64,000 nt of DNA from an uncultured Mesoterricola sp. (lineage in GTDB: Bacteria; Acidobacteriota; Holophagae; Holophagales; Holophagaceae): NCBI GenBank assembly GCA_964627225.1, contig CAZVHQ010000007.1, positions 47,165 through 111,164 of the forward strand, read 5' to 3'. Each line of letters begins with the position of its first letter. The stretch's first letter is position 1. The notes under the pieces are model-generated. The model was given only the letters and a program-made list of their open reading frames with translations, did not search any database and was not told the DNA's origin. This document shows, piece by piece, positions 1,606 to 63,434 of this stretch. The position numbers and the translations under genes were made by a program.

Positions 1606-1620
1606 ACTGAGGGTGCTGGA

Positions 1621-4152: not shown

Positions 4153-4159
4153 CAGGATC

Positions 4160-5155: not shown

Positions 5156-5230
5156 AGCCATCCTATTGATCATGCGCACCATTCCACCAAGGAGGTTGCG
5201 TCGTACCCTACCTACTTTAGAGCGTTTTTT

Positions 5231-38778: not shown

Positions 38779-39708
38779 TCAGGGCTTGCGGGCCCGGGGA
38801 TGAGCGGATTCGTATGTCCGGGCCAATTGTTCCAGGTCCAGATGAGTATAACGCTGGGTGGTGCTGAGGCTGGCGTGGCCCAGCAGTTCCTGGATCGCCC
38901 GCAGGTCCATGCCGCGGCTCAGCAGGTGGGTGGCGAAGCTGTGGCGCAGGGCGTGCGGGCTGATCCGGTTGCGCAGGGCCGCCCGGTCCAGGGCGCCGGC
39001 CAGGAAGGTGCGCACGCTGGTGGGGGTGAGCCGGCCGCCGCGCTGGTTCAGGAACAGCGCCGGAGTGGGCGGCAACTGCTTCTCCGCGATGAAGGCGCGC
39101 CGGTGCGCGAGATAGCCCTTGAGCACCTCCGCGGCCCTTTCGTGGAACGGCACCAGCCGCTCCTTCCGGCCCTTGCCCAGCACCCGCAGCGTGCGCTGTT
39201 CCATGAGCAGATCCTGGAGGTCCAGCCCGGTCAGCTCGGAGACCCGCAACCCGGCCGCGTAGAGCAGCTCCAGCATGCAGTCCAGGCGCGCGGTGAGGAA
39301 GTCGGTGGCCGGCAGGTCCAGCAGCGCCGCACTTTCGCCCTCGGTCAGGAAGGCCGGCAGGCGCTGGGGCAGCTTGGGATTGCGCAGGCCCGAGGCCGGG
39401 TTGACGTTGATCCGCTGGGTCTCGAACAGCCACCGGTAGAAGCCGCGCACGGTGGAAAGGATCCGGGCCTGGCTGGCCGGGTCCAGGCCCCGCTCCCCCA
39501 GTTCCAGGGCGAACCGGCGCAGGGTCCTGGGCGGCACCTCCCAGGCGCCCCAGGACTGGCCCGCGGCATGGGCCAGGAGCTTGGCCAGATCGCCGTCCTG
39601 GGCCCGGAGGGTATGCGGCGACACGCCCCGCGCCCGCTGCTCCAGGCGGAACGCCGCAACTGCTTCCGCCAGGCTTTGGGGGTTGCCGGAATTATCCATG
39701 GACGACAT
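38779..39708 (-). CDS. xerC: tyrosine recombinase XerC-like
   Basis: GLRVSEL, GKGRKER, HALRHSFATH, LLGHASLSTTQRY; housekeeping context. Confidence 0.88.
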   Translation of the reverse strand: MSSMDNSGNPQSLAEAVAAFRLEQRARGVSPHTLRAQDGDLAKLLAHAAGQSWGAWEVPPRTLRRFALELGERGLDPASQARILSTVRGFYRWLFETQRINVNPASGLRNPKLPQRLPAFLTEGESAALLDLPATDFLTARLDCMLELLYAAGLRVSELTGLDLQDLLMEQRTLRVLGKGRKERLVPFHERAAEVLKGYLAHRRAFIAEKQLPPTPALFLNQRGGRLTPTSVRTFLAGALDRAALRNRISPHALRHSFATHLLSRGMDLRAIQELLGHASLSTTQRYTHLDLEQLARTYESAHPRARKP

Positions 39709-44289: not shown

Positions 44290-44325
44290 AACATACTATA
44301 ATTGTTATATATTTAATTCGGTCCC

Positions 44326-46638: not shown

Positions 46639-46728
46639 TGGCGGATGGCGCCTAAGTGCCTTTCCCGCTAGTCCCATCATCGCTCCTGTGCGACAATTCC
46701 ATTGCATCAGAGCGAGACAAGGGACCCC

Positions 46729-47295
46729 ATGACTGGAAATTCCGACAAAGCCCCCAAGAAGGTAAAAGAAAAAAAACAAACCCCACAGGAACGTCTCGAA
46801 GCCATGCGCTACAACCATATGATGTATGGCCCAACCGAAGGGGAATTGAAGCTAAATCCGAAAAAAGTGGATTTTGGCGCCTCATTCCTAAAGCACGCCA
46901 AATTCCAAAGCCTGATGACCTCCTTTAAAAACGGAACCGCCTTTAAATTTGACATCACTGCCAATGGCAAGATTTCCACCATCGATACCGATGGCTCGCA
47001 CATCTCCTTCGACGGCAAGGTGCTCTTCTACGCCCGCGCCTTGAACAAGTACGAGGACAACCTGCTGCTCGAACGCGGCACGGCGGTTCAACTCCAATCC
47101 AACGACGCGGTGGTCCACCTGGTGTTCGCCGTGTTGCGCAGCCTGCCGGAGCTTGGCGAGCCGCAATTTTCCTATCTGCACCACAAGTTCTACCACGGCA
47201 ACGGCAGCCTGGAAACCAGCTCGACCGAGCAAGGATCCAATCTATTGATTGGGCCTTATAAACATAATAAAACCCACGAAAAAATCAAGTACTGA
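46729..47295 (+). CDS. hypothetical protein, lower GC
   Basis: 188-aa ORF with AAGGGA RBS-like sequence; family not recognised. Confidence 0.6.
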   Translation: MTGNSDKAPKKVKEKKQTPQERLEAMRYNHMMYGPTEGELKLNPKKVDFGASFLKHAKFQSLMTSFKNGTAFKFDITANGKISTIDTDGSHISFDGKVLFYARALNKYEDNLLLERGTAVQLQSNDAVVHLVFAVLRSLPELGEPQFSYLHHKFYHGNGSLETSSTEQGSNLLIGPYKHNKTHEKIKY

Positions 47296-47361
47296 CCGGC
47301 GCGGAGCGTCCAGCGCATCTTTTCCCACTGCACGGGTGGCAGAGCGGCGAAACTAGCCCCC

Positions 47362-47550
47362 GTGAAAAATCATCTCTTGCGCATCCTCGGGGCTGGTTTC
47401 GGCCTGGCGGTGATCCTCGGCGCGACCGTCGGAGGGGAGATCCTGCGGCTGCCCGGAGCCGTGGCGGCGCTGCTGCCCAGGTTTGGGGATGGCCACGGCG
47501 ATCGGCAGCTCCAGGCATTGACCCATTTAGCACGCGCTTGCCTTCCATGA
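47362..47550 (+). pseudogene. APC-family amino acid permease 5' fragment
   Basis: LLRILGAGFGLAVILGATVGGEILRLPGAVAALL matches APC TM1, then truncates. Confidence 0.65.
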
Positions 47551-47759
47551 CCAGCCTGGCGGCTTCGGCGGCCAGCCCGGCCATGCGGATGGCGCCCAGC
47601 CAGGTCTGTTCCGCGGACGAAACGCCATGAAGCGGTTTTTTTCCAGGAATATTCCTTGAAATACACCCGATCATCGGGCCTACAATACCCTTCCGATCGA
47701 CCAAGCAGCAGACTCGCTGCTTGGCGCAACCAGCCACCAAACCACCAATGGAGGGACCC

Positions 47760-49286
47760 ATGGGCAAAGTCTTCGAAGCTCCCGGCAAGCCTGGCAGTAT
47801 CGTCACCGTCAAAAGCCGCTACGGCAACTTCATCGGAGGCGACTGGGTCGCTCCAGTGAAGGGTCACTACATGGCCAACGTCAGCCCGGTCAACGGCAAG
47901 CCCTTCTGCGAGGTGGCCAAGTCGACCGCCGAGGACGTGGAACTCGCCCTCGACGCCGCCCACGCGGCCAAGGACGCCTGGGGCGAGACCTCGCTCGCCG
48001 GACGGGCTGCGGTCCTCAACCGCATCGCCGACACCATCGAAGCCAACCTGGAAATGCTGGCCGTGGCCGAAACCTGGGAGAACGGCAAGCCGGTGCGGGA
48101 AACGTTGGCCGCCGACATCCCCTTGGCCGTCGACCATTTCCGCTACTTCGCCGGCGCAACCCGCTCGCTGGAGGGCACCTCCACCGAGATCGACAAGGAC
48201 ACCATCGCCTACCACTTCCACGAGCCGCTCGGCGTGGTGGGACAGATCATCCCGTTCAACTTCCCTCTGCTCATGGCCGCCTGGAAAATCGCTCCGGCCC
48301 TGGCCGCGGGCAACTGCACCGTGCTCAAGCCGGCCACCCCGACGCCCTGGTCGATCCTCAAGCTGGCCGAGCTCCTCGTCGGCGTGGTGCCGCCCGGCGT
48401 CATCAACGTCATCACCGGTCCGGGCGCCGAGATCGGCAAAGCGCTGGCGACCAGCCCGCGCATCGGCAAGATCGGCTTCACCGGCGAGACCACCACTGGC
48501 CGGCTGATCATGCAGTACGCCGCCCAGAACCTCATCCCGTCCACCACGGAACTCGGCGGCAAGTCGCCCAACATCTTCTTCGCCGACGTGATGGACAAGG
48601 ACGACGCCTTCCTCGACAAGGCGATCGAGGGCCTGGTGCTGTACGCCTTCAACAAGGGCGAGGTGTGCACCTGCCCGTCGCGCGCGCTCATCCAGGAATC
48701 GATTTACGACAAATTCATGGGCCGTTGCCTTGACCGGATCCGCAAGATCACCCAGGGCAACCCGCTCGACACCGCCACCATGCTCGGGCCGCAGGTTTCG
48801 GTCCAGCAGCTCGAAAAGATCATGTCGTATGTCGATATCGGAGCCCAGGAGGGGGCCGAGTGCCTCATCGGCGGCAAGCGGAACATCCTGAAAGGGGAGC
48901 TCGCCGAGGGCTACTACTTCGAGCCGACGGTGCTCAAGGGCCACAATAAGATGCGCGTCTTCCAGGAGGAGATCTTCGGCCCCGTGCTGGCGGTGACCAC
49001 CTTCAAGGACGAGGCCGAGGCACTGGCCATCGCCAATGACACCCTTTACGGCCTCGGCGCCGGGGTGTGGACACGCAATGGCAATCTCGCGTACCGGATG
49101 GGCCGGGCGATCAAGGCCGGTCGGGTGTGGACCAACTGCTACCACCTCTACCCGGCGGGCGCGGCCTTTGGCGGCTACAAGATCTCCGGCGTCGGGCGCG
49201 AGAACCATCAGATGATGCTCGAGCACTACACCCAGGTGAAGAACCTGCTCGTCAGCTACAGTCCCGAACCGCTCGGGTTCTTCTGA
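47760..49286 (+). CDS. NAD-dependent aldehyde dehydrogenase (AldB/ExaC type)
   Basis: [41 protein letters not shown]. Confidence 0.95.
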
Positions 49287-49299
49287 TTGGAGTTGGAGT

Positions 49300-49650
49300 A
49301 TGGACGCGCCCTTCACGGAACCCGCGGTAACCGCCACCCCGGCAGCGCTTGAGGCGATCGCCAATCTGGTGGCCGAGAGAGGCGCGGTCATGTTCTACCA
49401 GTCGGGGGGCTGCTGCGATGGCAGCCTCCCGATTTGCTTCGACGACGGGGAGTTCATCCTCGGCGACCATGACGTCCTGCTGGGTGAGGTTGGCGGCTGC
49501 CGGTTCTACATCGACCCCCGTCAATACGAGGTATGGAAGCACACTCAGCTCATCCTCGACCTCGGCGAGGGAGAGCCCGAAGGGTTTTCCCTCGCGGCCA
49601 GCGAAGGCAAGCACTTCATCACCCGATCGCGGGTGTGTACCAGGCCGTGA
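49300..49650 (+). CDS. DUF779 family protein
   Basis: MFYQSGGCCDGSLPIC..WKHTQLILD..GFSL..FITRSR; usual partner of AldB-type dehydrogenases. Confidence 0.9.
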   Translation: MDAPFTEPAVTATPAALEAIANLVAERGAVMFYQSGGCCDGSLPICFDDGEFILGDHDVLLGEVGGCRFYIDPRQYEVWKHTQLILDLGEGEPEGFSLAASEGKHFITRSRVCTRP

Positions 49651-49992
49651 CCGCCGCATTCTTGAGCGTGCCTTCCACCTGAACGGGGCCATGGGGGGTG
49701 TGGGCGAGCAGGCAGGCAGCTATGCCGTGCTGCTGAAGCCCGATCAGATCGGGAGCGAAATCCGGCGCCCCCGCCCGGGGCGAGCGTGTGGCCGAATACA
49801 GCCAGATACTGCGATGTGCTTCATGATGGCGTTGGGGGAAACCCCCTTCCGAAGCCATGAAAGGAGAACCGCCATGCTTCGAGAGGCGCTTGGATCTCCT
49901 CGAAAAGCCCCAGCGCCTGATCGCCACCTTGCGCGCCTGAGCCGAAGGAGTGGGATAGTGGATCTTCATATTCGGGATGGGGAAGGTCGGCC

Positions 49993-50367
49993 ATGAACAG
50001 AGTCTTTTGGGTATTCCTCGGCGGAGGCATCGGGTCCGCGACACGCTACGGCACGACCTTGCTGGCAGGGAAGCTGTTCGGCACCGGGTTCCCCTGGGGC
50101 ACCTTGATCGTCAATCTCAGCGGGTGCTTTCTCATCGGCATCATCCTGGCGCTGGCGGAAAAAACCAATCTCGTGCAGCCCTCCACGCGCCTGTTCTTCG
50201 TGACCGGGTTCCTGGGGGGATTGACCACCTTCTCCAGCTACGCCATGGAAAGCATCCTGGCGTTCCGGAGCAGCACGTATCTGGCTCTGGCCAACATCGC
50301 GGTGAACAACCTGGTCGGCTTGGCCCTGGTTGTCTGCGGCCTCACCTTGACCGAACGGATCCTTTGA
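49993..50367 (+). CDS. crcB: fluoride efflux channel CrcB/Fluc
   Basis: GGGIGSATRY, FPWGTLIVN, TGFLGGLTTFSS. Confidence 0.95.
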   Translation: MNRVFWVFLGGGIGSATRYGTTLLAGKLFGTGFPWGTLIVNLSGCFLIGIILALAEKTNLVQPSTRLFFVTGFLGGLTTFSSYAMESILAFRSSTYLALANIAVNNLVGLALVVCGLTLTERIL

Positions 50368-50382
50368 AACCAGGGGTTGAAC

Positions 50383-51672
50383 ATGCCATTGACCTACACG
50401 CTCGCACGTATCTTCACCAGCGAAGAGTCCCGGTATAACGGAAGGCCCCTGTACCAGGAGATTGTGGATCTCGTCAGCCGGCAAAAGATCTCCGCCCGCT
50501 GCCATGTCACCAAAGGCATCGCCGGGTGCTATGAAAATGGTGAAATAGCGACCTTCGGCGTGGAGATTTTCTCCTTCAATATGCCGCTGGAAATCATCGT
50601 GATCATGCCGCAGCAGGAAAGCGCACGCCTGCTTCCCCTGATTGAAGACATGGTGGACGAAGGCCTCATGACGGTCGAGGAGAAGGATGTGCATTGGCAC
50701 AAGTGCCGGAGGCAGATGATTCCCCGGCAGGTCCGGGTCAGGGACGTGATGACGGCGAATCCCCAGACCCTGCCTCTGGACGCGCCGGCCGCCGAGGCCC
50801 TGCGGATCCTGGTTTCGGCGCAATTCCATGGGATACCGGTCGTGGACAGCCATGACCGGCCGGTCGGCATGGTCACCCATGGCGACCTGCTCCGGCAGAC
50901 GGCCCTGCCGATCAAGGCGGGCTTGTTCCGCAAGTTCGACCCTTCCCACCTGGAAGCCATGGAAAAGGTGCTTGCTGGCACACGGCTGGCGGACCTCATG
51001 AGCCAACCGGTGGTGGTGATCAAGGAAGACCGGCTGCTGTCGAAGGCAGTGGACCTCATGCTGGAGAAGGATCTCAAGCGCCTGCCGGCCGTCGCCGAGG
51101 ATGGCAGCATCACCGGGATCCTTTCCAGGCTCGACATCTTCAAGACCATCATGGATCGCAACCCCGACTGGGGGACCTTCGACCGCGGCGGCGTCAAGCT
51201 GGGTGACCTCACGTTCGTGAAGGATGCCATGCGCACCGACACCCCGACCCTCCCGCCATCGGCGCCGGTCTGGGACGCCATCAAGCTGATCGATTCGACC
51301 AGCATCAACCGGGTGGCCATCGTGGATCCGGCGGGGAAGCTTCTGGGCCTGGTATCGGACAAGGTCCTCATGGCCGCCTTTTCGGCCCACAAAGGCGGGC
51401 TCCTGGACCTGATCGTGGAAAAGCTCTCGTTCATGGACCTGGCCCGCAGGAACAAGAGCTTCCTGAAAGCCCTGCGGGCCCGCACGGTCGGCGAGATCAT
51501 GCTGACATCCATCTTCTCCGTGAAGGAGGACGGGCTGATCGACGACGCTCTGCAAATGATGGTCGAGAAGAAGCTCAAGCGCATTCCCGTCCTGGATGAG
51601 CAGGGGCATTTCAAGGGGATGCTGACCCGGGATTCGCTCCTGCGCGCGATGCAGCCCCCGCCCGGGATGTGA
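50383..51672 (+). CDS. DUF190 (PII-like) domain fused to two CBS pairs
   Basis: RIFTSE..GRPLYQEIV..GIAG..MPLEI..MVDEGLMT DUF190; four CBS repeats. Confidence 0.85.
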   Translation: MPLTYTLARIFTSEESRYNGRPLYQEIVDLVSRQKISARCHVTKGIAGCYENGEIATFGVEIFSFNMPLEIIVIMPQQESARLLPLIEDMVDEGLMTVEEKDVHWHKCRRQMIPRQVRVRDVMTANPQTLPLDAPAAEALRILVSAQFHGIPVVDSHDRPVGMVTHGDLLRQTALPIKAGLFRKFDPSHLEAMEKVLAGTRLADLMSQPVVVIKEDRLLSKAVDLMLEKDLKRLPAVAEDGSITGILSRLDIFKTIMDRNPDWGTFDRGGVKLGDLTFVKDAMRTDTPTLPPSAPVWDAIKLIDSTSINRVAIVDPAGKLLGLVSDKVLMAAFSAHKGGLLDLIVEKLSFMDLARRNKSFLKALRARTVGEIMLTSIFSVKEDGLIDDALQMMVEKKLKRIPVLDEQGHFKGMLTRDSLLRAMQPPPGM

Positions 51673-51764
51673 ACCGGGCTGCCGTTGCGGTCATTGCTTG
51701 GGAAATCATGGCTGATGGACAAAGGCCAGGGTTGCGTCAATTTGCGCCCAGCCGTGGCCTGCCC

Positions 51765-52432
51765 TCACAGGAACAGCGAACCTTCGATCACTTTCACGGC
51801 CTTGCCGGCGATCATCACGCGGTCCCCCCTCAGCTTGCAGAACAGCTCGCCGCCCCGCTTCGAGAGCTGGCGCGCATGGAGGTCCCGCTTGCCCAGGCGC
51901 TCTGCCCAGTAGGGCACTAGGACACAGTGGCTGCTGCCCGTGACCGGGTCTTCGGGAACGCCCATTTTCGGCGCGAAGCAGCGGGACACGAAATCGCAGT
52001 TGGAGCCCGGAGCGGTCACGACGATGAGCGCGGGCTCGAGCCGGGAGATGGCATCCAGGTCGGGCTTCAAGTTCCGCACGGAGGCTTCGTCTTCCAGCAA
52101 GGCAAAGAGGTCGCGGGTCACGGCCAGCGGTCCGGTCTTGCCGACGAAATCCACCCGGTCGCGCTCAGGATGGAGTTCGTTGAGCAGCACGAAGGCGCTG
52201 GCCAGGGTCGCGTGCCCGCAGAGGTCGATCTCGCCCCCGGGCATGAACCAGCGGATGCGGTAGCCCTTCCCTTCGGCACGAAGAAAGCGGTCTCCGACAG
52301 GTTGTTCTCCGCGGCAATGGCCTGCATGGTCGGTTCGGGCAGCCACTGCTCCAGCGGCATCACGGCCGCCGGATTGCCGCTGAAGGGATGTTCGGCGAAG
52401 GCGTCGATTTGATAGATGGGGTATTGGCTCAT
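51765..52432 (-). pseudogene. PhzF-family protein, frameshifted and internally deleted
   Basis: QIDAF..GNPAAV..NLSETAF in one frame; RWF..EIDLCGHAT..EDPVTGS in another; shift near 52274. Confidence 0.85.
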
Positions 52433-52466
52433 GCCTGGCTCCGTCCCTTCACTTCCAGGATCATTT

Positions 52467-53867
52467 CTATTGCCGTCGCGCCCGCAGGGTTTCGAGGATG
52501 GCATCAGCCGAGCGGTCGATGTCCTGTTCGGTCGTGGACCAGTTGCTGATGGAGATCCGCATGGCAGCCATGCCGTGCCAGACGGTCCCGCCCAGCCAGC
52601 AGGTGCCTTCCTGCTGCACGCCGGCGATCACCGCCCGGGTCAGGGCATCGGCATCCCAGTGCGGGTCTTCGAACCTGACCAGCACCTGGTTCAGCACCAC
52701 TTCGTTGAGGATCCGCACCGTCGGTTCGGCCCCGAGCCTTTCGGCCATGCGCTTGGCCTGGCTGCAATTGCGTTCCACCAAGGCGCGCAGGCCATCGCGT
52801 CCCAGGCTGCGCAGGACGGCATACACCGGAACCGCCCTGGCGCGCCGGGATTCCTCCGGCACGAACTCGTGGGGATCGCGCTCCTGGGTGTCCGAAACGA
52901 TGTAGGCGGCGGCCAGGGACATGGCCGCCCGGTGCGCTTCGGGATGCGCGCAGAAGACGATGCCGCAATCATACGGGACGTTGAGCCATTTGTGCCCGTC
53001 GGTGGCGATGGAGTCCGCGCCTTCCAGGCCGGCGGCAAGCCTTCCAAGGGATGGGCTGGTGCGGGCCCAGAGTCCGAAGGCACCATCCACATGCAGCCAT
53101 GCGCCGCGGGCGCGGCAAAGCCGCGCGATCTCCTCGATGGGGTCGAACGCGCCGGTGTTCACGTTTCCGGCCTGCGCGCAGACGATGCAGGGTCCGCTGC
53201 TTTCGCCGAGCATCCGGGCCAGTTCCGGGGCGAGCATGCGGCCCTGGGCGTCGGTGGGGACGCGCCGCGCCCGCCCGGCGCCCAGCCCCAGCAGACGCAG
53301 AGCCATGGAGATGGTGTAGTGGGATTCTTCGCTCACCAGGACGTCGATGGCGGGCGCCCCGGTCAGACCGGCGGCCTCGACGTCCCAGCCCTCCTTGATG
53401 AGCACATCGTGGCGGGCCGCCGCCAGGGCCGTGAAACTCGCCATCTGGCAGCCGGTGACGAAACCCACCCCGCGATGGTCGGGGAGCCCCAGGAGATCGC
53501 GCATCCACCCCGCCGTGATCTCCTCCACGACCGAGATCATGGGCGCCATGGCATAAACGGCGCTGTTCTGGTCCCAGGCCGAGACCAGCCAATCCGCGGC
53601 GGTGGCGACGGGGAGGCTGCCCCCGATCACGAAGCCGAAGTAGCGTGGTCCCTGGGAGGCGAGGGTGCCTCGCTCCGCCGCGGCCGCCAGCGTGTTGATC
53701 ACCGCCGCGCTCTCGGTCCCCGCCGCGCCGAGAGCGCCCCCCAGCGCGCTCCGCAGTTCCTCGCTGGTGGCGCTGGCAGCCACGGGGCGGTCGGCCACTG
53801 TGCCAAGGTAGGCCTGTCCATGCTGGGCGGCAAGGGCAAGCAGGGCATTCCGGTCGTCATGGTTCAT
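52467..53867 (-). CDS. group II PLP-dependent (aromatic) amino acid decarboxylase
   Basis: RYFGFVIGG, DWLVSAWDQN, GNVNTGAFD, HVDGAFG, DGHKWLNVPYDCG. Confidence 0.88.
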   Translation of the reverse strand: MNHDDRNALLALAAQHGQAYLGTVADRPVAASATSEELRSALGGALGAAGTESAAVINTLAAAAERGTLASQGPRYFGFVIGGSLPVATAADWLVSAWDQNSAVYAMAPMISVVEEITAGWMRDLLGLPDHRGVGFVTGCQMASFTALAAARHDVLIKEGWDVEAAGLTGAPAIDVLVSEESHYTISMALRLLGLGAGRARRVPTDAQGRMLAPELARMLGESSGPCIVCAQAGNVNTGAFDPIEEIARLCRARGAWLHVDGAFGLWARTSPSLGRLAAGLEGADSIATDGHKWLNVPYDCGIVFCAHPEAHRAAMSLAAAYIVSDTQERDPHEFVPEESRRARAVPVYAVLRSLGRDGLRALVERNCSQAKRMAERLGAEPTVRILNEVVLNQVLVRFEDPHWDADALTRAVIAGVQQEGTCWLGGTVWHGMAAMRISISNWSTTEQDIDRSADAILETLRARRQ

Positions 53868-53987
53868 CACGTTCTCCGCAGCAGGGGCAGGCAGCCGCAT
53901 GGCTTCTCTGGTCAAGAGCAAGGAGACCACCGGCCGGAATCGAGAAACAGATACAAAAAATAATATTTAAGCTATAACAGATTCACC

Positions 53988-55415
53988 ATGCCCAGCCTCT
54001 ACCAGGACATCGCGCACCAGCTGGCCCGGACCATCCAGGACGGACTGATCAAGCCCGGAGAGTCGCTCCCTTCCCTGCGGCAGTTCTGCCAGAGCCAGGG
54101 GGTGAGCCTCATGACCGCCCTGGCGGCCTATCGCCATCTGGAGGACATCGGGCTGGTGAAGGCAGTGCCCCGCTCCGGTTATCGGGTGCTGGCCACCCAG
54201 GTCGCGCCGCTGATCCACCCGGCGATTCTCCGCTCCAGGCTGAACTCGTCCAGCACCCACCGGACCGACATCATTTCCCAGTTGTTCCTGGCCTCAGCGG
54301 ATCCTGCCATCATCCCGCTCGGCTTTGGCTGCCCGTCCGCGTCCTTGTTCCCCCTGTCCGGACTGCGCAAAGTCACCCGGGAGCTGCTGAACACCCGCAA
54401 GGAACTATGGGTGACCTACTCCACGCCTCCCGGCTGCGCGGCGTTGCGGCGCCAGATCGCCCGGCGGCTCCAGGCGCGGGGGATGGACGTTGGCGAGGAG
54501 GAGGTACTGCTCACGGCCGGCGGCATGGAGGCCCTGTCGCTCTGCCTGCGTCTGCTGGCGGACCCTGGAGATCTCGTGGCCGTGGAGTGCCCGACTTTCT
54601 TCGGGGTCGTCGACGCCGCCCGGAACGCCAGGGCCAGGATCGTCGAACTGCCTGGAGACCCGGTCGCGGGGCTCGATCCCGGACGTCTGGCCGCCGTGTG
54701 CACAAAACAGCCGGTGCGCGCGGCTGTGCTGCTTCCCAATTTCGCCAACCCCACCGGCAGCCTCATGCCCGAGGACAGGAGACGCGAGTGGATGAAGGTG
54801 CTCCAGGCGACCGGGGTCGCCCTGGTGGAAGACGACATCTATGGCGACCTGGCCTGGGATGGCCACAAGCCGGAACTGCTGTGCGCCACACCGCGGGAGG
54901 ACGGCCTGCCGAACCTCCTGGTGGGATCCTTGTCCAAGACGCTCCTGCCGGGCGGCCGCGTGGGTTACGTGGTGGCCAGGAGCCCATGGATCGAGCGGCT
55001 GGCCGACCTGAAGAGCAGCTCCACGCTGGCCAATTCCACCCTCTCCGAACATGTGGCCGCTGAATGCCTTGCTTCGGGGATGTTTGAACGCCACCTTCGG
55101 CATCTGGTTCCGGGCATCAGGACCGGGGTGAGCAGGCTGCGCGGCTGCGTCGCCCGCCAATTCCCCGCCGGGACTCGGGTTTCCGACCCCAAGGGCGGTT
55201 TCTTCCTCTGGGTCGAATTGCCCAGGGGGACGGATTCCCTGGCGCTGTTCCGGGCGGCCTTGAAGGAAGGGGTGAGCCTGGCTCCGGGCTGCATCTTTTC
55301 ATTGGGCGGAGGCCTCGACCGGTTTCTGCGCCTCAACGGTGCGGCTTCCGGGGATCTTGACCAGGCGATGGGGGTTCTCGGGCGGTTGGCGGGGGAATTG
55401 CACAACCAGCAATAA
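53988..55415 (+). CDS. MocR/GntR family PLP-dependent regulator
   Basis: LYQDIA..GESLPSLR GntR HTH; NPTG, EDDIY, SLSKTLLPGGRVG. Confidence 0.93.
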   Translation: MPSLYQDIAHQLARTIQDGLIKPGESLPSLRQFCQSQGVSLMTALAAYRHLEDIGLVKAVPRSGYRVLATQVAPLIHPAILRSRLNSSSTHRTDIISQLFLASADPAIIPLGFGCPSASLFPLSGLRKVTRELLNTRKELWVTYSTPPGCAALRRQIARRLQARGMDVGEEEVLLTAGGMEALSLCLRLLADPGDLVAVECPTFFGVVDAARNARARIVELPGDPVAGLDPGRLAAVCTKQPVRAAVLLPNFANPTGSLMPEDRRREWMKVLQATGVALVEDDIYGDLAWDGHKPELLCATPREDGLPNLLVGSLSKTLLPGGRVGYVVARSPWIERLADLKSSSTLANSTLSEHVAAECLASGMFERHLRHLVPGIRTGVSRLRGCVARQFPAGTRVSDPKGGFFLWVELPRGTDSLALFRAALKEGVSLAPGCIFSLGGGLDRFLRLNGAASGDLDQAMGVLGRLAGELHNQQ

Positions 55416-55505
55416 TCTACTAATTACGGATGGGCAGTTCGCGGCCCGACCTCACCAATCCGGCCATTCCGCCAGCCCCCGTTCCTGCAGAAACCCCATG
55501 TAGGT

Positions 55506-55621
55506 TGCTGAATGGTCATTCCTGCTTTTCTCGACGAGGCATGACTGGACAGGGCCTTCCGTAAATGAAGCCCTCCACCAGGAAGTGCGGGATGCGCTGG
55601 GCTCCGGGAAAGTATGACCCA
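55506..55621. repeat. diverged direct-repeat copy of the leader and first codons of the AlbA gene (62044-62159)
   Basis: 51/56 match at 55506-55561 vs 62044-62099 and 23/24 at 55598-55621 vs 62136-62159, same 6538-bp offset. Confidence 0.9.
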
Positions 55622-55780
55622 ACGGCATTCGTTCTTCCCAATATCAGAAATAGCCGGAATGGATCGTTGCTCATGATCGGGGCGGTTTGACCATGGTTGG
55701 GGCAAAACGCATTGACGTGTTTGGAGGCTTGAGATAATTGTTTGGTTGTGCAATTGTGCAATTACTTGTCGAGGCGTTCC

Positions 55781-56749
55781 ATGGATCTTCGGATTGGCTA
55801 CTTCCCAGTGCTGGATGCCGCCTTAGCCCTTCGTCAAAGCTTTGAATCGCAGCGTTTCGCCCCCTTCAACCCAGTCATGCATGGGATTCACGATCGGCTT
55901 GGCAAGGCGGGCCGGGCCCAGGTGGACCAAGTGGGGCAGGCCACGGGCGGATGGTTGTCCATCCTCGGCATTCTACTTGACCAGGAATCGGCGGGCCTTA
56001 AGGGCCTGGAAGAAGGATTCCTCCAACTGCAACAAGATCCCCTGGCCGCGTTACCGCTGATCCGGAAAGGTACCTTCCCGGACATGAACGGCATGGCCAA
56101 GGTACCATCCGAGTCCACCATCCTGACGGCGGGCCACCTGATGGGCCAGACCCTGGGGGTCAACATCGTCGGTGAAGCCGCCCGGCGCTCCCGTCGGCTC
56201 CTTGAGGCGACCCAGGCTCTCGCCGAGGCTACGCGCAGCCAGGGCGTCTGGCCCTATCTCATGCGGGTCTCCGACCGCCTGCGGCGAACCGCTTCCGGCG
56301 AGATAGCCTTCCGGATCAAGCCCGAATTCCGTCTCCGCGAGGATGCGGTCGAACGCATCGTCCTGACGCCTTCCCTGGTGGCGACCCGCCGCCTCACCTA
56401 TTGGCGCAACGGCTCGACCTTGGTTTTCTTCATCTCCGAATGCGCTCCGGCGGCTCTCAACGATCCACCGGACGGCCTTCTGCTCACGGCCTTGGCCGTG
56501 GGTGACCGCACCCGCCTGCGGATGCTGCGCCGCCTGGCCCAGGGCGCGTGCAACAACCTGGGGATGGCCGAGTTCCTGGGCATGAACCCCTCCACGGTGT
56601 CCCGCCATTTCAAGGTCTTCAAGGACGCCGGTTTCGTGGAATTACGCGAAGGTGCGGATGGGCGCGCGGAATACGAGTTCACCCCCGAGGCCATGACCGC
56701 GGCCTTCGGCGCCATCTCCGACTTCATCCAGGGCAGGGAGCAGCCATGA
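55781..56749 (+). CDS. regulator with C-terminal ArsR-type wHTH
   Basis: AVGDRTRLRML..MAEFLGMNPSTVSRHFKVFKDAGFV. Confidence 0.8.
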   Translation: MDLRIGYFPVLDAALALRQSFESQRFAPFNPVMHGIHDRLGKAGRAQVDQVGQATGGWLSILGILLDQESAGLKGLEEGFLQLQQDPLAALPLIRKGTFPDMNGMAKVPSESTILTAGHLMGQTLGVNIVGEAARRSRRLLEATQALAEATRSQGVWPYLMRVSDRLRRTASGEIAFRIKPEFRLREDAVERIVLTPSLVATRRLTYWRNGSTLVFFISECAPAALNDPPDGLLLTALAVGDRTRLRMLRRLAQGACNNLGMAEFLGMNPSTVSRHFKVFKDAGFVELREGADGRAEYEFTPEAMTAAFGAISDFIQGREQP

Positions 56750-57492
56750 CGCAACTGGAAGAACTGTCGGCCAACGCCTGGCCGGGTCTGCGCTGCTCCC
56801 TGGTGGACGGCTGGATCGCGCGGTTCGCCATGGGCCATACCCATCGCGCGAACAGCGTCCTGCCTCTGGGGCCTGGAAATGGCACCCTGGCCGATCGCAT
56901 CGCCCGGTGCGAAGCTCTGTACCGGCTGGAAGGGCTGGAGCCCTGCTTTAAGATCTTCCCGGAGGCCGTGCCCGAAGATCTGGATGCCCAGTTGGCTCAG
57001 CGCGGCTATATCCGGCGCGCGAACGGCCAAGTCCTGGGGCTCGAGGCCCTGCATTCAGCGCGGTCCGCGACGAAAGGGTGGACGGTCACCAGCTTGCCCC
57101 ACCTGACCCCCGAATGGTTCCAGTTCCATGCTGACAGCAGCGGCCTGGATGCGCGCAAGGCGACCGCGGCCAAGGCCATTCTGGAAGCCATCGTGCCTGA
57201 ACGCCGCTTCCTCATGCTTGAGGGCGACGCTGGACCGGCGGCCTGTGCCCTGATCGTGCTGGAAGATGGCTGGGCGGGCATTTTCGATCTGATGGTGCGA
57301 AAGGAATGGCGCGGGCAAGGCCTGGGGCGCGCCGCCATGCAGATGGCGCTGGCCGAGGCGGCAAGGGCCGGGGCCCGGCGTTCCTACCTGCAGGTGCTGG
57401 ACGCTAACCGGGTCGCCAGGGAACTGTACGCCAGCCTAGGCTACCGGCCTCTGTACTCCTACGGGTTCCGGGTGAAGGCGCCGCATGCCTGA
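56746..57492 (+). CDS. GNAT family N-acetyltransferase
   Basis: NAWP..DGWIARF..RANSV; RGQGLGR; YLQV..N..LYASLGY. Confidence 0.88.
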   Translation: MTQLEELSANAWPGLRCSLVDGWIARFAMGHTHRANSVLPLGPGNGTLADRIARCEALYRLEGLEPCFKIFPEAVPEDLDAQLAQRGYIRRANGQVLGLEALHSARSATKGWTVTSLPHLTPEWFQFHADSSGLDARKATAAKAILEAIVPERRFLMLEGDAGPAACALIVLEDGWAGIFDLMVRKEWRGQGLGRAAMQMALAEAARAGARRSYLQVLDANRVARELYASLGYRPLYSYGFRVKAPHA

Positions 57493-58768
57493 ACCGGCCG
57501 CCCTGCATTCAAGCCCTGCCCACCCTCCGCGAGCGCCGGCCGCGCCGCTGCGCCATGCTCTGCGGGCCTTGAGGCACCGGAACTTCCTGCTGTTCTGGGT
57601 CGGCCAAGGGACCAGCGTGTTCGGCACCTGGATGCAGACCACGGCCCAAGGCTGGCTGCTCTTCCGGCTGACCCATTCGCCCATGGCATTGGGCCTGCTC
57701 AGCGCGGCGCGGTTCGGCCCCGCGTTGGTGGCCGCACCCTTCGCGGGCCTCCTTTCGGACCGTTTCCCCCGGCGCCGGGTGGCGCTGTTCACCCAGGCCG
57801 CAGGCCTCCTGCTGGCCACCCTACTGGCAGAGTTGGCGTTGACCGGCCGGGTGCGGGTCCCCCACATCCTGCTCCTCGCCACGCTTCAGGGCTTCGCGGA
57901 TGCCGTGGACGCGACCAATCGCTATGCCTTCCAGAGGGACCTGGTGCCGGCGGATGACCTGCAAAGTGCCCTCGGCCTCAATTCCGCCGCCTTCAACGTT
58001 GCGCGTATGATGGGTCCCTGGGTCGCGGGAATCCTGATCGCCCGGTTAGGTGAAGCCGTCTGTTTCGGCCTGAACGCCGCGAGCTATCTGGCGGTACTCG
58101 GATCCCTCCTGCTCATCCGGTTGCCCCCTGGCGCCTATTCCAGGCCAAGCCCAGCCAAGGCCCAGGCGCTCCTGGCCGGTCTCCGGTTCACTTTTTCGAA
58201 CCCCGCCATCCGCCGGGTCATGCTCGTGGTGGCCCTCACGTCCCTGACCGGGCTCGCGTTCAACACCCTGGTCCCGGCCCTGGCCGGGGATGTCCTGCAC
58301 ACGGGACCCCGGGGCTTCAGCTGGCTCCTGGCCGGGGGCGGCATCGGCGCGGTCCTGGGCTCCCTCGGCGCCGCCGCCTACGCCACCCCCGGGCGGACAG
58401 CCTGCATTCATGGGGTCGCGCTTTGCGCGCTCGGGTGCGCCCTGTTGACCCTGGCCGTGGCCCGTGCCATTCCGCTGGCGTTGGCCGGAATGATGCTGCT
58501 CGGAGCCATGACGTCGGTCCAGCATTCGACCAGCAATGCCTTCCTGCAAAGCGCAGCTCCGGCCGATTTGCGTGGACGGGTCGCCTCGCTTTACGTCTGG
58601 GTGATGCAGGGTCTGGCCCCCGTTGGTGGGCTGCTCCTGGGCTGGGCAGCGAGCCGGGTGGGCATTCCAATCACCCTCGCCTGGACCGGCTCGGTGGGTT
58701 TGGCGGCCGGAATCACTCTGAGTTTCAGGCTCAGCCGGCACCCCAGGCAGGTGCCGTCGCCAGGTTGA
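57485..58768 (+). CDS. MFS transporter (MFS_3/EntS-like)
   Basis: LRHRNFLLFWVGQ..GTWMQ, DRFPRRR, NSAAFNVAR, LRGRV. Confidence 0.92.
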   Translation: MPEPAALHSSPAHPPRAPAAPLRHALRALRHRNFLLFWVGQGTSVFGTWMQTTAQGWLLFRLTHSPMALGLLSAARFGPALVAAPFAGLLSDRFPRRRVALFTQAAGLLLATLLAELALTGRVRVPHILLLATLQGFADAVDATNRYAFQRDLVPADDLQSALGLNSAAFNVARMMGPWVAGILIARLGEAVCFGLNAASYLAVLGSLLLIRLPPGAYSRPSPAKAQALLAGLRFTFSNPAIRRVMLVVALTSLTGLAFNTLVPALAGDVLHTGPRGFSWLLAGGGIGAVLGSLGAAAYATPGRTACIHGVALCALGCALLTLAVARAIPLALAGMMLLGAMTSVQHSTSNAFLQSAAPADLRGRVASLYVWVMQGLAPVGGLLLGWAASRVGIPITLAWTGSVGLAAGITLSFRLSRHPRQVPSPG

Positions 58769-59019
58769 GGCGGTGAACTCAAGCGATTCCAAAAAGGCAG
58801 TCCGTCAATGGTCACAGCCAACGGGTGGTGCCAGGGCCGAGACAAGATCGCCATTTTGTTCGATCATGGATGAAATGGATGGGCCGGGCGGTCCCGCCCG
58901 TGAAAGCCCTTTCCCGGTCAATGGATCCAATCTGGCGGTGATTTTTCCGTTTAGGTTTCTTCAATTATCCGAAAAGAGTTCCCATAAATTTCGCTAAAAA
59001 TAGTAAGTTATCTTTTTTT

Positions 59020-59060
59020 AGTAACTTACGCGAGCTGCTGGACATGATCAAGTTCGAGCA
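59020..59060 (+). repeat. att-like direct repeat: duplicate of the ubiA 5' region (62522-62562)
   Basis: 38/41 identity, including perfect TGGACATGATCAAGTTCGAGCA; 3 mismatches synonymous in the ubiA frame. Confidence 0.92.
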
Positions 59061-59395
59061 ACTTTTTGGGCCAAAGCTATACCAAGAAACCAAATGGCAT
59101 TTGTTTCCAACACTTACACTCAGCTTTGAGAAGTGCGAACGGTGCTGAAGTGTTTCTTGATGTGTCCATAAGTGCCCTGAAATGTCGAAGCGTTAAGAAT
59201 GCGGTTCGCCCCATGGTTCGCCCCTGATTCGGGCCTCTTGCCGAAATTGGGACCAGGGAATGTCCGCACCGGACCGGACGTCACCGGCTCCAGGCACCCC
59301 TTGGTTCAGGCACTTCCCTGCCACGGCCACCCATGCACATGGAGTGCACTCCGGAGAGTCTGCCTCATGGCGCCAAGCCAGCAGGCAAACCGTCG

Positions 59396-60376
59396 ATGGG
59401 TCAATGGCCCTGGAATTGCGCAAGGCTATCTATCTTTGTTTGTTTATTTAAGGGTCAACATGACCCATTCCTGAGCCCAAATGGCCCATAAAGACGGGTC
59501 AATGGCGCACCATGCCCTCAGACGCCCCATTGAGGCCAGGGGCATGGTATATTCTGCCCGTGAATATTAATCAAAACACCCCCACCGATATCATATAAAA
59601 CCTAGCATTCCCAATAATCGCCATGAATATTATGGCTGGTTAAATATTTGAGTATTCATTCATGACCGTTGAACCCATTAATTTCGCCGACCCAAGACAA
59701 GCCTCTGCGTTGCATGGTCTTCAGCAAGCGGCTTACGGGGCCGAAGCCATATTGCTTGGGACCACAGACTTTCCACCTTTGCGGGAGACCTTGGACGAAT
59801 TGGTATCCGCTGCAGAGGCGACCCTCGGGGCCTGGGACGGAGAGCATCTTTGCGGAGCCATCACTTACCAGGTTTCAGGCCATTCGATCGACCTCTGCAA
59901 GCTCATCATTGACCCGTCCCATTTCCGGCTTGGGCTGGGCTTTTTCCTTGTCTGGCAGCTCCTTCACGCGTTCCCAGGGTTACCTGTTGCCGTGACGACC
60001 GGATCCAGAAACACTCCCGCCTTGCGGCTGTATACCAAGTTGGGATTCAGCCCGATGAAGACGTGGATCGCGAAAGAAGGAATTGCCCTGGTCATGCTCG
60101 TGAGAAATGCCGGCCATCTTTCGCCCATTTCATAACGCTTTGCTCAACCCTGCTCGTCTTGGCCCTATGTACTTCCGTGGTCCCAGCCCATTTTCGATTC
60201 GCCGTTCACGACGGCGAGCGTTCCGAGGGTTGAGGTGCCCAGCAGTGGCACCGGTAATGGAACAATGGCCAGGGAATTGCGCAAAGGTATCCGCATGCTT
60301 TTCGTATCTTTACGGTCAAGATGACCGATACCAGACTCAGAATGACCCCTGAAGATGGGTCAATGGCGCGCCATGC
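59396..60376. repeat. pair of 120-bp diverged direct repeats (59396-59515, 60257-60376) flanking a GNAT gene
   Basis: ungapped alignment at 861-bp offset; shared GGAATTGCGCAA, GGTCAA.ATGACC and GGGTCAATGGCGC. Confidence 0.88.
59662..60135 (+). CDS. GNAT family N-acetyltransferase, lower GC
   Basis: LQQAAYGAEA..DFPPLRET..HFRLGLG..TGSRNTPALRLYTKLGF. Confidence 0.85.
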   Translation: MTVEPINFADPRQASALHGLQQAAYGAEAILLGTTDFPPLRETLDELVSAAEATLGAWDGEHLCGAITYQVSGHSIDLCKLIIDPSHFRLGLGFFLVWQLLHAFPGLPVAVTTGSRNTPALRLYTKLGFSPMKTWIAKEGIALVMLVRNAGHLSPIS

Positions 60377-62057
60377 TCCAATCGGACCACTTAGGCCCGG
60401 GCAGGTAGCGCCCCCGGGAATCGCCGTCCCGGACCAGGGTTTCCTCTTTCACCAAGGCAGCCAAGGCTCTTTTCGCGGTGGAAGGAGACACTCCGAAGCA
60501 GTCCTGATAGTCCTGGTTCTTCACGAACCCTTGCGCCTCCATGCGAAGCCGGAAGGTTTGCCCGGGGTCCATGCGGGTACCGCCAGTCTGAGGGCCTAGG
60601 ACATCCAGGGCGACCCTGACCCGGTACAGGCCGCCGGGCCCTGGGTGGTCGGGCGCCTCCAGGAAGCCGGCGTCGACCATGGCGCGCAACTCCCGGTAGG
60701 CCTGGTCGCGGTCGACATCGTTCAGGGCCTGGTATTCTCCGCTCCCGAAGGCCCCACCTTCGTTCTTGGCCAGAATGCGCTGCTGCCGGATGTTCAAGGG
60801 AAGACGGTGAATGAAGGAGATCCACTCAGGCCGTCCACCCGCGAAGACCGGTGTGTTTCGGAGCGTCATCACGAAAACCCCGCCTTCGAGGTCCAGTTCC
60901 GGCATGGGTAGCCATGACGTCTCCATTTCATCGAAAATGCGGGGCATACCCTCGCCCTGCTCCCGCATCAGGCCCAGTTCCGCCAGAACCCGGGTGACGC
61001 GCGGATTGCGGCTGGCATGGGCCCGGCGGCGGGCACGAAGCGTTTCCAGGGTCACCGAGGGCAGAAGATCCCCCGGACTCCGGATTTCCATACGGTCGGA
61101 AAACAGCCAGACTTCAACGCCGCGCCCATGGTCCCGATATTCTCGGTGCGCCACAGCATTGACCACGGCCTCCTGCCAGGCGAAGGCCGGGTACTCGGGC
61201 ATTTCCTTGAAGAACAGGTCATGCAGGCGCTCCGAATTCCGGATCAGCAACCCGAGCCGGTGGTAGGCCACTTCGATGACCTGGCAGAGATTGCCTTCAA
61301 TCCGGGGCTTGACCTCGGAGACGTTGTTCCTCGATCCGGTGAGACGCTCACTCCCCTCGACCCGGAAGATCCGGATACCTGCATTCGGATGGTCGAGGCG
61401 CCGAGCCGATCCTGAAAACAGGAGCAGGGCTGCACGCCGGAGCAGAAGTTCGGCCCCTCGCCATTCCACCAGTCCACGCTCAAGAAGAAACCCCAGGTAG
61501 TCGGTGGGGGCAAAACCTGCGCTGCGGGCCGCAGCCTCCATCCGCTCGGGATCCAGCGCATCCAAACCGATTCCGGGAACCAGGTCGGATTCATAGCTTT
61601 CCTCTTGGCCACGGCGCTTGATGGCGTTGATCGCCTCCTCGGAGTCCTGGATGACCGTGTCTTTCACTCGCCGAGGAAAGCCGTCACCATGCACCATCAC
61701 CGCCCGGGGCGCGGTGGGCACCGAGAAGATCAGAACCTGGTGGCCTTCCAACTCCTGAACCCAGCCCGGCGCCTGGGGCGGGGTGAGCCGCCTGACGGGA
61801 ACCGAAACAAGATCCTGCAGGACGTCCGCTGGGTAACTATGACCGGTCACCGTCTTGTCATCCTCCTGACCAAGGATGAGCACGCCACCGTCCGCGTTGG
61901 CAAACGCCGCAACAGACGAGGCGACCTCGTCTCGCACTTCGGACCGGGACCGTTGTTTCTTCATTCCGGGGGGACCGTGGAAGAGGCTCTTCCGATCGAA
62001 GAATTGCCCCTCCTCTTGGCGAAGGTATGGCGTGAGGTCAAGCTGCTGAATGGTCAT
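60360..62057 (-). CDS. AlbA_2/Schlafen-domain + HATPase_c_4 (RecG-C-like) + tandem wHTH protein
   Basis: EEGQFFDRKS, AFANADGGVLILG.ED; EAVVNAVAHREY, SPG, RNPR, GEGMPRI; two C-terminal HTH-like segments. Confidence 0.88.
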   Translation of the reverse strand: MTIQQLDLTPYLRQEEGQFFDRKSLFHGPPGMKKQRSRSEVRDEVASSVAAFANADGGVLILGQEDDKTVTGHSYPADVLQDLVSVPVRRLTPPQAPGWVQELEGHQVLIFSVPTAPRAVMVHGDGFPRRVKDTVIQDSEEAINAIKRRGQEESYESDLVPGIGLDALDPERMEAAARSAGFAPTDYLGFLLERGLVEWRGAELLLRRAALLLFSGSARRLDHPNAGIRIFRVEGSERLTGSRNNVSEVKPRIEGNLCQVIEVAYHRLGLLIRNSERLHDLFFKEMPEYPAFAWQEAVVNAVAHREYRDHGRGVEVWLFSDRMEIRSPGDLLPSVTLETLRARRRAHASRNPRVTRVLAELGLMREQGEGMPRIFDEMETSWLPMPELDLEGGVFVMTLRNTPVFAGGRPEWISFIHRLPLNIRQQRILAKNEGGAFGSGEYQALNDVDRDQAYRELRAMVDAGFLEAPDHPGPGGLYRVRVALDVLGPQTGGTRMDPGQTFRLRMEAQGFVKNQDYQDCFGVSPSTAKRALAALVKEETLVRDGDSRGRYLPGPKWSDWSMARH

Positions 62058-62545
62058 TCCGGCTTTTCTCGACGAAGGATGACTGGACGGGGCTTTCCGG
62101 AAAAAATACCCTTACCCGTGAAGCGCTGGAGGTGGTGGGCTCCAGGAAAGTATGACCCAGATGAGGTCCTTGCCCACGGCAACCTAGCCGACCGGACCCG
62201 CCTGATGGTGATCCTGGCCACCCTGATCGAGAGCCACCTGCTTACCGCGAAATGCCATCCGCTGCCCCGATGAAGTAATCCCGAAAGCCGCACAGGCGTA
62301 ACACTCCAGAGTGGATCCATTCGGTTTCTGATCAGGGCCAAGACAAGACCTGGAATATATCGGATCATGTTCCGATGAGCACGGACAAGGATTACCCCCA
62401 GCAAGCCCCATGGCACCACCCCCAACCCGATGCCGAGGTCGATACGAAAGACGAGCCCGTTGTATTTTCAGCGCCAATTGTCGAAAATTCACCAGTAAAT
62501 TTAGTTAAACGACGTGTTTTCAGTAACTTACGTGAGCTATTGGAC

Positions 62546-63382
62546 ATGATCAAGTTCGAGCACACGGTGTTCGCGCTGCCCTTTGCGCTGCTGGGCGCCC
62601 TGGCCACGTCCCGGGGCCTGCCGCCACTCGAGAAGGTGCTGTGGATCCTGGTGGCCATGGTAGCGGCGCGCACCGCCGCCATGACCTTCAACCGCATCGC
62701 CGACCGGGACCTGGATGGGGCCAATCCGCGCACCCGGGACCGCGCGCTCCCCGCGGGCCGGGTGAGCCTCGGCGGGGCCATGGCGCTGCTGGGCCTGGCC
62801 ATCGTGCTGTTCGGCTTCGCGGCGGGACGGCTCGGCCCGCTGCCCTGGAAGCTGACCCCGCTGGCGCTCCTGATCATCCTCGGCTACTCCTTCTGCAAGC
62901 GCTTCACCTTCCTGAGCCACGCGGTGCTCGGCCTGGCCCTGGCCGGGGCGCCGCTGGGCGCCTGGATCGCGGTGAACGGCCGGCTGGATCCGCCGGCCTG
63001 GTGGATGGCCCTGGGCGTGCTCACCTGGACCGCCGGGTTCGACATCCTGTATTCCCTTCAGGACCTTGACTTCGACCAGGCGCGCCGGCTCCATTCGGTC
63101 CCTTCCCGCCTGGGGGTTCCGGCGGCATTGTGGGTCTCCCGGGGCCTGCACCTGGCGGCCCTGGGCGCCTGGGCGATGTTCAACCTGGGCCTGGAGGCGC
63201 ATCTGTTTCCATGGCTGGCCTGGGCCCTGGTGGCGGGCATCCTCGCCCGGGAACAATGGGTGGTCCGGGGCGGACGGCTGGAGCGCATCGACCACGCCTT
63301 CTTCACCTTGAACAGCCTGGTGGGGCTCATCTTCTTCACCGGGCACCTGGCGGAATGGATCGTGGCGCGGCTGGCGCCCTGA
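62546..63382 (+). CDS. ubiA: UbiA-family prenyltransferase (4-hydroxybenzoate polyprenyltransferase/MqnP-like)
   Basis: MIKFEHTVFALPF, AMTFNRIADRDLD..NPRT..R.LP.G, GFDILYSLQD; start may lie a few codons upstream. Confidence 0.92.
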   Translation: MIKFEHTVFALPFALLGALATSRGLPPLEKVLWILVAMVAARTAAMTFNRIADRDLDGANPRTRDRALPAGRVSLGGAMALLGLAIVLFGFAAGRLGPLPWKLTPLALLIILGYSFCKRFTFLSHAVLGLALAGAPLGAWIAVNGRLDPPAWWMALGVLTWTAGFDILYSLQDLDFDQARRLHSVPSRLGVPAALWVSRGLHLAALGAWAMFNLGLEAHLFPWLAWALVAGILAREQWVVRGGRLERIDHAFFTLNSLVGLIFFTGHLAEWIVARLAP

Positions 63383-63434
63383 TGTTGAAAACTTCCTCGA
63401 CAGCCGAAGACATCCCACGTAGGGTAGGAATTCT

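Follow-up and report, generated by a model that had tools for sequence, protein, structure and literature searches.

Paired copies of a 41-bp repeat at a ubiA/mqnP-like gene of an uncultured Mesoterricola as probable junctions of an integrase-less integrative-element remnant

The window analysed here is a stretch of 64,000 nucleotides from an uncultured Mesoterricola sp. of the family Holophagaceae (Acidobacteriota; assembly GCA_964627225.1, contig CAZVHQ010000007.1). In it a 41-bp sequence occurs twice, once within the 5' part of a gene for a UbiA-family polyprenyltransferase (hereafter ubiA) and once at the far end of a 3.5-kb unit upstream of it. A sequence-only reading of this DNA had taken the pair for an attachment (att) site of an integrative element, and we followed it up by comparison with related genomes. 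Coordinates are positions in the window; G-numbers denote Holophagaceae genomes, L-numbers loci and X-numbers sequencing runs. The features of the repeat and its surroundings are as follows.

58839 to 58877, plus strand: left promoter-like module, GAGACA-17 nt-GATCAT, with ATG 58875 (predicted, displaced)
58875 to 59043, plus strand: displaced leader, 169 nt from the ATG to the MIK codon, out of frame by three-frame translation
59020 to 59060, plus strand: left att copy, core 59036-59060 (TGCTGGA-CA-TGATCAA-GT-TCGAGCA), inverted arms 6/7
59203 to 59221, plus strand: doubled GGTTCGC, a predicted arm-type site 159 nt inside the left end; the same motif lies at +157 to +159 in G022, G076 and G021
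62340 to 62377, plus strand: right promoter-like module, AAGACA-17 nt-GATCAT, with ATG 62375 six nt on; predicted leaderless ubiA start
62375 to 62545, plus strand: 57-codon replacement N-terminal leader, 171 nt, in frame, AT-rich near the core and without an arm motif at -78
62522 to 62562, plus strand: right att copy, core 62538-62562 (TATTGGA-CA-TGATCAA-GT-TCGAGCA), predicted 7-bp strand-exchange segment 62547-62553
62375 to 63382, plus strand: UbiA-family polyprenyltransferase, probably MqnP of the futalosine menaquinone pathway, 335 amino acids from ATG 62375 (PF01040, E 3.5e-51)

The two copies (59020-59060 and 62522-62562) are identical at 38/41 bases and without any difference over the last 22 bp. 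The three mismatches (CGC/CGT, CTG/CTA and CTG/TTG) are synonymous, with SNLRELLDMIKFE kept in both copies, and with the flanking T-run the repeat comes to 46 bp at 91% identity. A scan of the 4.75-Mb assembly that allowed up to nine substitutions returned two copies only, and the chance expectation for such a pair within the window is ~9e-9. The earlier description of a 41-bp duplicate with purely synonymous differences stands. The similarity had also been said to stop abruptly after GAGCA, which it does because the right arm of the inverted repeat of the core ends there. The arms of this inverted repeat match at 6/7 positions in the left core and at 4/7 in the right. The two-copy arrangement is no assembly artefact, as a single contig of run X2, possibly the run from which the assembly derives, covers 54560-63006 with zero differences to the window, and two contigs of run X3, which belongs to another study, reach across 58300-59294 and 59287-63400. 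The contigs of X3 and X4 break at 59287-59294 with an overlap of 8 bp, and the loose ends of X3 at this point resemble inverted termini, which suggests an insertion sequence-like insertion with target duplication in other strains.

The product of the gene scores 268 bits with TIGR01475, above the cut-off of 180.8, and 224-258 bits with the MqnP models, all under their cut-offs, while the genome holds two MqnC-like genes, the best with 421 bits against a cut-off of 428. From these profile scores the gene is likely to encode MqnP of the futalosine pathway. Its frame is open from ATG 62375, which lies 57 codons upstream of the Met in MIKFEH. The residues E-L-L-D that precede this Met are kept in 116, 120, 111 and 117 of 121 loci, a set that contains seven duplicate rows. 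Because of this conservation the MIKFEH Met is very likely internal and not the start, and the repeat therefore sits within the coding region. The repeat had been described as the start of ubiA, which does not hold, as it lies ~50 codons inside the likely frame from ATG 62375; for annotators, the conserved MIKFEH Met is probably a wrong start.

A degenerate pattern of the core matches 112/133 genomes of the family, and second copies were found in 9/133 including the present one. The latter figure is a lower bound, as the looser searches covered fetched loci and five genomes only. The other second, non-gene copies belong to G007, G022, G059, G083, G102, G140, G076 and G021, that of G021 being on another contig. 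The DNA between paired copies measures 3.5-23 kb and its contents differ among genomes (a lanthipeptide cluster, SNF2/DUF499 genes, an efflux (RND) pump, two-component genes). This doubling of the same site around unrelated cargo in eight other genomes bears out the proposal of an att site within a protein-coding gene. All nine att pairs share ATGATCAA with a single mismatch in one pair: pairwise identity is 9/9 at seven of its eight positions and 8/9 at the remaining one, and outside it falls to 7/9 at -1, 6/9 at +8 and 3/9 at +9. The crossover, previously put within the 22-bp identical block, agrees with that block and is narrowed by the nine pairs to a predicted position in ATGATCAA. This segment sits inside an inverted repeat with 7-bp arms, and the whole site forms the dyad TGCTCGA-CA-TGATCAA-GT-TCGAGCA, perfect in 66/120 gene-copy rows (not de-duplicated). 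Strand exchange is predicted to take place in the centred 7-mer TGATCAA, a length that is typical of tyrosine integrases according to PMC10111431.

The second matches of G020 and G079 run on into complete ubiA genes and were left out of the att pairs, as was a match in G142 regarded as due to chance. The one core match in the viral collection is a ubiA gene at a contig edge. Locus L051, from a record classed as viral, has a host-like start (1-6853) that contains ubiA with a leader of 171 nt as well as a long pentapeptide-repeat gene, and this part is probably host flank. Among the cargoes, the ubiA element of G007 (L031 5262-16581) carries a class I lanthipeptide cluster with LanB, LanC, a C39 peptidase-ABC transporter and HlyD, and a candidate precursor lies near L031 10898. 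The element of G022 (L047 10943-19135) carries SNF2 helicase and DUF499 defence-like genes, and the contig with the G021 clade integrase (L154) also bears a similar helicase-like open reading frame (ORF). A 394-residue ORF beside the left end of G022 was first guessed to be an integrase and rejected, being a fragment of the SNF2 helicase.

A cognate integrase clade exists for this att site, and its intact members end just upstream of it. In the single-contig genome G076 the att copies lie 23,190 bp apart around an intact element, and 37 nt separate the end of its integrase gene (378 amino acids, PF00589 E 3e-20) from the MIK codon. The arm motifs lie in the last codons of this integrase, and one base past its stop comes an in-frame ATG; the element also encodes a coupling protein and a helix-turn-helix protein. 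Across 17 aligned homologs the catalytic residues of tyrosine integrases (R, K, H-x-x-R, H and Y) are invariant. Of 14 metagenomic homologs, the closest three (51-58% identity) all have the core and ubiA next to them on the 3' side, which is true of none of the remaining 11. In a quick tree of 93 rows, 77 of them without label and with the root a drawing convention, the four ubiA-adjacent integrases (G076 and L156-L158) fall into one branch of 26 rows (SH-like approximate likelihood-ratio test, SH-aLRT, 99) that includes 0/12 tRNA-labelled rows. The same branch contains the half-integrase inside the G022 island, a protein of G021 and L159, and an integrase protein at the level of this clade is present in 3/133 genomes of the family. 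A search of cultured phages gave best matches of 25-28% identity only.

Outside the branch many relatives (~30-48% identity) are followed by tRNA sequence that starts at or contains the anticodon loop, most of it identified by eye. The anticodon-loop 7-mers, also read by eye (TTCCCAA, TTCGTAA, CTCCGAA, CTCCTAA and CTCATAA), end in AA, as does TGATCAA, and ARAGORN placed a tRNA-Arg adjoining the integrase in L126 and L169. Since relatives outside the branch adjoin tRNA anticodon loops, a switch of the integrase target is likely, and it would have run from tRNA to ubiA. The anticodon-loop integrases of the same hosts are the nearest relatives of the ubiA clade and resemble it in that the integrase points at the 3' part of its target and short inverted arms enclose a 7-nt segment with AA at its end. 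They differ in that their fragments begin at anticodon loops, whereas the ubiA clade uses TGATCAA in coding sequence. The tRNA-Arg genes after the integrases of L126 and L169 are complete genes and not 3' fragments, which hints at replacement of the tRNA 5' half in some cases.

Two types of replacement end precede ubiA. In the first the integrase abuts the gene, with a short start after the integrase stop (G076, L156-L158); in G078 and G001 only the last codons of the integrase remain. The second consists of GACA-N17-GATCAT, an ATG 6-8 nt on and a 57-codon leader, with arm motifs in frame where present. GATSAT-N6-8-ATG occurs in 65/114 distinct ubiA 5' regions as against a rate of 0.002 in shuffles; of these, 63 are in frame and open and 60 have GACA at the -35 distance, and the leader measures 168/171 nt in 23 of the 114 alleles. 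Length changes of the leader in aligned right ends (0, -3, -3, -60) are multiples of three, and the displaced window copy alone has -2. The doubled GGTTCGC, a predicted arm-type integrase site, stands at -78 +/-1 in 13/114 distinct right ends and at +157 to +159 in 5/9 left ends, including that of the window at 59203, and on both sides in G022 and G076. Promoter function of the -35/-10-like motif and leaderless initiation of ubiA are likewise predicted. The earlier proposal that the right end of the insert supplies the promoter and 5' end of ubiA is consistent with this promoter-like motif and with the open frame from ATG 62375.

Within the genome under study, [AG]GACA-N17-GATCATG has three occurrences, two of which are the left and right ends described here. 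The left module is AT-rich, and its best similarity is with element right ends (that of G102 at 90% over 51 bp). Its leader is out of frame because it has 169 nt and not 171, that is, 2 nt short of the functional type, and in an alignment with 14 right ends the gap is in this copy only. The left copy had been regarded as the original, host-type gene end; it appears instead to be a second, frameshifted module of element type, so that the synonymous pattern compares two replacement ends. G007 shares the left end of the window (75% over 212 bp) and its AlbA gene, around different cargo. The remaining features of the unit and its upstream neighbourhood are the following.

38779 to 39708, minus strand: XerC-like gene, 313 bits, below the TIGR02224 cut-off
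46639 to 58838: accessory block upstream of the left copy, with aldehyde dehydrogenase-like, CrcB, CBS, pyridoxal phosphate (PLP) decarboxylase, GntR-aminotransferase, ArsR, GNAT and MFS genes
59378 to 59541: degenerate copy (72%) of 60239-60401, the copied part being the 3' end of the AlbA gene and its flank; remnant of a second AlbA module
59662 to 60135, plus strand: GNAT acetyltransferase cargo gene (PF00583, E 4e-9)
60360 to 62057, minus strand: Schlafen/AlbA_2 and RecG-C (HATPase_c_4) cargo gene (PF04326, PF13749)

The labels in the upstream block come from Pfam, except that aldehyde dehydrogenase-like was read from the ORF. The block has a GC content of 64.4% against 69.1% to its left and is possibly the body of an earlier element; as the gene at 46702-47295 is also present in G003, its left edge is placed at 46.6-47.3 kb. 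The GC content between the att copies is 58% against 67% for the genome, and the AlbA_2/RecG-C gene is common to the G007 element (87% DNA identity over 1.6 kb to L031). Remnants of the start or end of this gene recur three times (55463-55621, 59378-59541 and 60239-60401), and related AlbA modules have therefore entered or decayed repeatedly. From the element-type left module and the AlbA-start remnant at 55463-55621, a tandem array at this site may be proposed. One contig of X18 joins 59442 to 60339 through 35 other letters and misses the GNAT gene. Further upstream, a gene on the minus strand at 51765-52504, presumably PhzF-like, appears split over two overlapping ORFs, probably by a frameshift, and 41782-46638 holds tandem Ser/Thr kinase genes ~70% identical to each other, of which two or three copies are also present in G009 and G011.

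Relatives without the insert, with which an alignment had been suggested, do exist. G009, of the same genus, is colinear with the window over 33.2-46.6 kb and has a single, GC-rich ubiA end. The last kinase match in G009 ends ~400 bp before the core, so that ~16 kb is accessory in the window genome. In G012 and G019 the acyl-CoA ligase gene lies directly upstream of ubiA. The XerC-like recombinase and acyl-CoA ligase genes form a conserved neighbourhood upstream of ubiA in several genera, and the DNA between this neighbourhood and ubiA varies greatly, also in genomes that retain no second att copy. Within this species no empty site was seen in the contigs of eight runs. As the 3.5-kb unit is without an integrase, the genome without a clade member and no excision joint listed in the eight runs, the unit is probably immobile and fixed. 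The junction PCR earlier suggested would probably be negative in this strain because the unit lacks an integrase, which would leave the att reading unharmed.

We consider it highly probable that the two copies are the junctions left by an integrative element of which a remnant without integrase survives, its predicted place of recombination being ATGATCAA in the 5' part of the ubiA/mqnP-like gene. What lies between the window copies is a remnant and not an autonomous member of these 5'-replacement elements. A tyrosine integrase would have recombined within this segment of the gene, and integration would have pushed the promoter and first codons then in place out to the left end. The right end of the element would have brought the replacement, consisting of GACA-N17-GATCAT, the leaderless ATG 62375 and the 57-codon leader that ends in SNLRELLD. 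The site was probably hit at least twice, because the displaced left module is itself of element type, and this module would afterwards have lost its frame by 2 nt. Loss of the integrase gene and of the right arm motif would then have left a 3.5-kb unit, probably fixed, whose right end would today serve the cell as promoter and start of ubiA.

Several points weigh against this account. No direct recombination event has been observed, and a joint of 59060 to 62563 is absent from those listed for the contigs of the eight runs, out of 21 on offer; contigs drop rare variants, and the absence fits a fixed remnant without proving it. Pfam and tblastn found no integrase between the window copies, and the best integrase match of this 95%-complete genome is 30% identical and outside the clade. 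The right end scores only 5/14 for the arm motif, its element origin resting on position, AT-richness and colinearity with arm-bearing ends, and 4/9 left ends are without an intact arm motif. No left (third) att copy was found near 46.6 kb for the upstream 12-kb block. On the short contigs of two full-length clade members (L159 and G021 L122) the core does not come after the integrase, and the promoter and leaderless start of ubiA are known as predictions only.

It is possible, although we hold it to be unlikely, that the left module is the long-domesticated resident 5' end of ubiA in this lineage, displaced once, and that the 12-kb upstream block is unrelated accessory DNA, or that the left unit is younger and entered an existing left junction. 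The 46.6-58.8 kb block is indeed not bounded by a left att or an arm pair, the displaced copy of G083 is also a 171-nt module, which implies that such modules can be resident alleles, and the left core has the better inverted repeat (6/7 against 4/7). However, the left module is AT-rich and nearest to element right ends, as measured against G102, the upstream block has a deleted remnant of the same AlbA start (55463-55621) that suggests a related element, and element-type bases also precede the left copy of G007.

It is considerably less probable that the 3.5-kb unit is non-autonomous yet mobile, with the integrase acting in trans from a visiting element of the clade or with the nearby host XerC-like recombinase (38779-39708) in its place. 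In its favour, the two copies still agree throughout the 22-bp core, the left arm motif is intact, and related units in G059, G102, G083 and G140 retain arms without an integrase. On the other hand, the right arm motif is gone, a clade integrase was not found in the 95%-complete genome and no excision joint is among those listed for the eight runs. Moreover, the core does not resemble the dif consensus, and since the left ATG is not in frame, ubiA would probably be impaired by excision. An ordinary duplication of part of the ubiA 5' region, by tandem duplication or illegitimate recombination and with no site-specific recombinase, is strongly disfavoured and very improbable. The homology that spans the promoter and core ~200 bp apart and the other degenerate repeats in the region speak for it; against it stand the same breakpoint in nine genomes with unrelated cargo, arm motifs at fixed offsets and an integrase clade that abuts the site.

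A bolder reading, which goes beyond the junctions of a remnant and which we regard as doubtful, is that a lineage of tRNA anticodon-loop integrases moved to the look-alike ubiA/mqnP site and rewrote the promoter and N-terminus of the gene across Holophagaceae. GACA-N17-GATCAT and the long leader (over half of alleles) would then be domesticated element ends, and the promoter would have begun as integrase codons (E-T...Q-I-M). In its favour, 23/114 alleles share the 168/171-nt leader, 13 alleles carry arms and five more carry degenerate arms, and G001 and G078 retain just the integrase's last codons before ubiA. Besides, the dipeptide I-M, which spells a -10-like hexamer, is found in 13/19 clade integrases versus 0/45 others, with the hexamers AATCAT, AATTAT and GATCAT at the three loci with DNA. 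Against it, the distance from I-M to the core varies from -191 to -227, G076 has I-Q, and the clade-specific I-M may be a single change. Homology of the 171-nt leaders to integrase tails was not detected (mean z 0.59, 1/85 above 3; 1.97 among leaders), and arm-less alleles show a weak trace at -78 (z 1.5-2.0), with 5/101 scoring at least 9/14 versus a mean of 0.38 at other in-frame offsets.

The nearest known systems are the dusA islands. According to Farrugia et al. (2015, PMC4482086), these provide their target with a replacement 5' end that has putative -10/-35 elements, the far boundary of the island is where the target's own 5' end lies, the imperfect direct repeats are ~21 bp long and excision has been demonstrated. 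The ubiA elements would share the mechanism of 5'-end and promoter replacement as well as the imperfect direct repeats. They differ in the target, a UbiA/MqnP-like prenyltransferase, and in the hosts, Holophagaceae; of the two, excision is known for the dusA islands only. The leader here is up to 57 codons long, and in several relatives the arm motifs form part of its reading frame or fall in the last codons of the integrase. At the sequence level, we found direct repeats that flank foreign DNA with one copy in a gene, a dyad crossover block, empty relatives and an open replacement frame with a promoter-like motif. An integrase of its own is missing from the window unit and present in G076 and L156-L158. 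Membership in the dusA-associated integrase family itself was rejected, as the target is a UbiA-family gene and not dusA/dusB. The SXT/R391 elements at prfC, a further parallel, are large self-transmissible integrative and conjugative elements of Gammaproteobacteria.

For the phage-inducible chromosomal islands of the HE type (HE-PICIs), PMC10111431 reports a 7-bp strand-exchange segment, a doubled motif at 81 and 132 bp and tandem arrays at one site. The ubiA elements resemble these and the fis PICIs in having a 7-bp segment in a longer identity block, doubled motifs on both sides (~78 and ~158 here) and, as proposed above, tandem arrays. Unlike HE-PICIs, which disrupt their target without replacement, they restore it and are not phage satellites, G076 carrying conjugation-type genes. 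The target had been called unusual for not being a tRNA gene; non-tRNA targets are common in general (PMC12884075), and what is left of the claim is that this particular target looks unreported. We found no literature report of ubiA/mqnP as an integration target, although the TIGER paper (Mageeney 2020) or the TIGER/Islander database may list the site, and the main texts of PMC13626063 and PMC12884075 do not mention ubiA. What appears to be new is the ubiA/mqnP target and its integrase clade, which we have not found in print, the mechanism being already known from dusA islands.

These elements add an integration hotspot and integrase clade for Holophagaceae, which are peat and wetland Acidobacteriota with few genetic tools. 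As the core pattern is present in 112/133 genomes of the family, an intact integrase such as that of G076 is a candidate insertion tool. The clade also offers a tractable case of an integrase lineage that shifts from tRNA anticodon loops to a coding site of similar symmetry. Furthermore, a gene of respiratory-quinone synthesis may have kept mobile-element ends as its promoter and N-terminus, a domestication that would be testable allele by allele.

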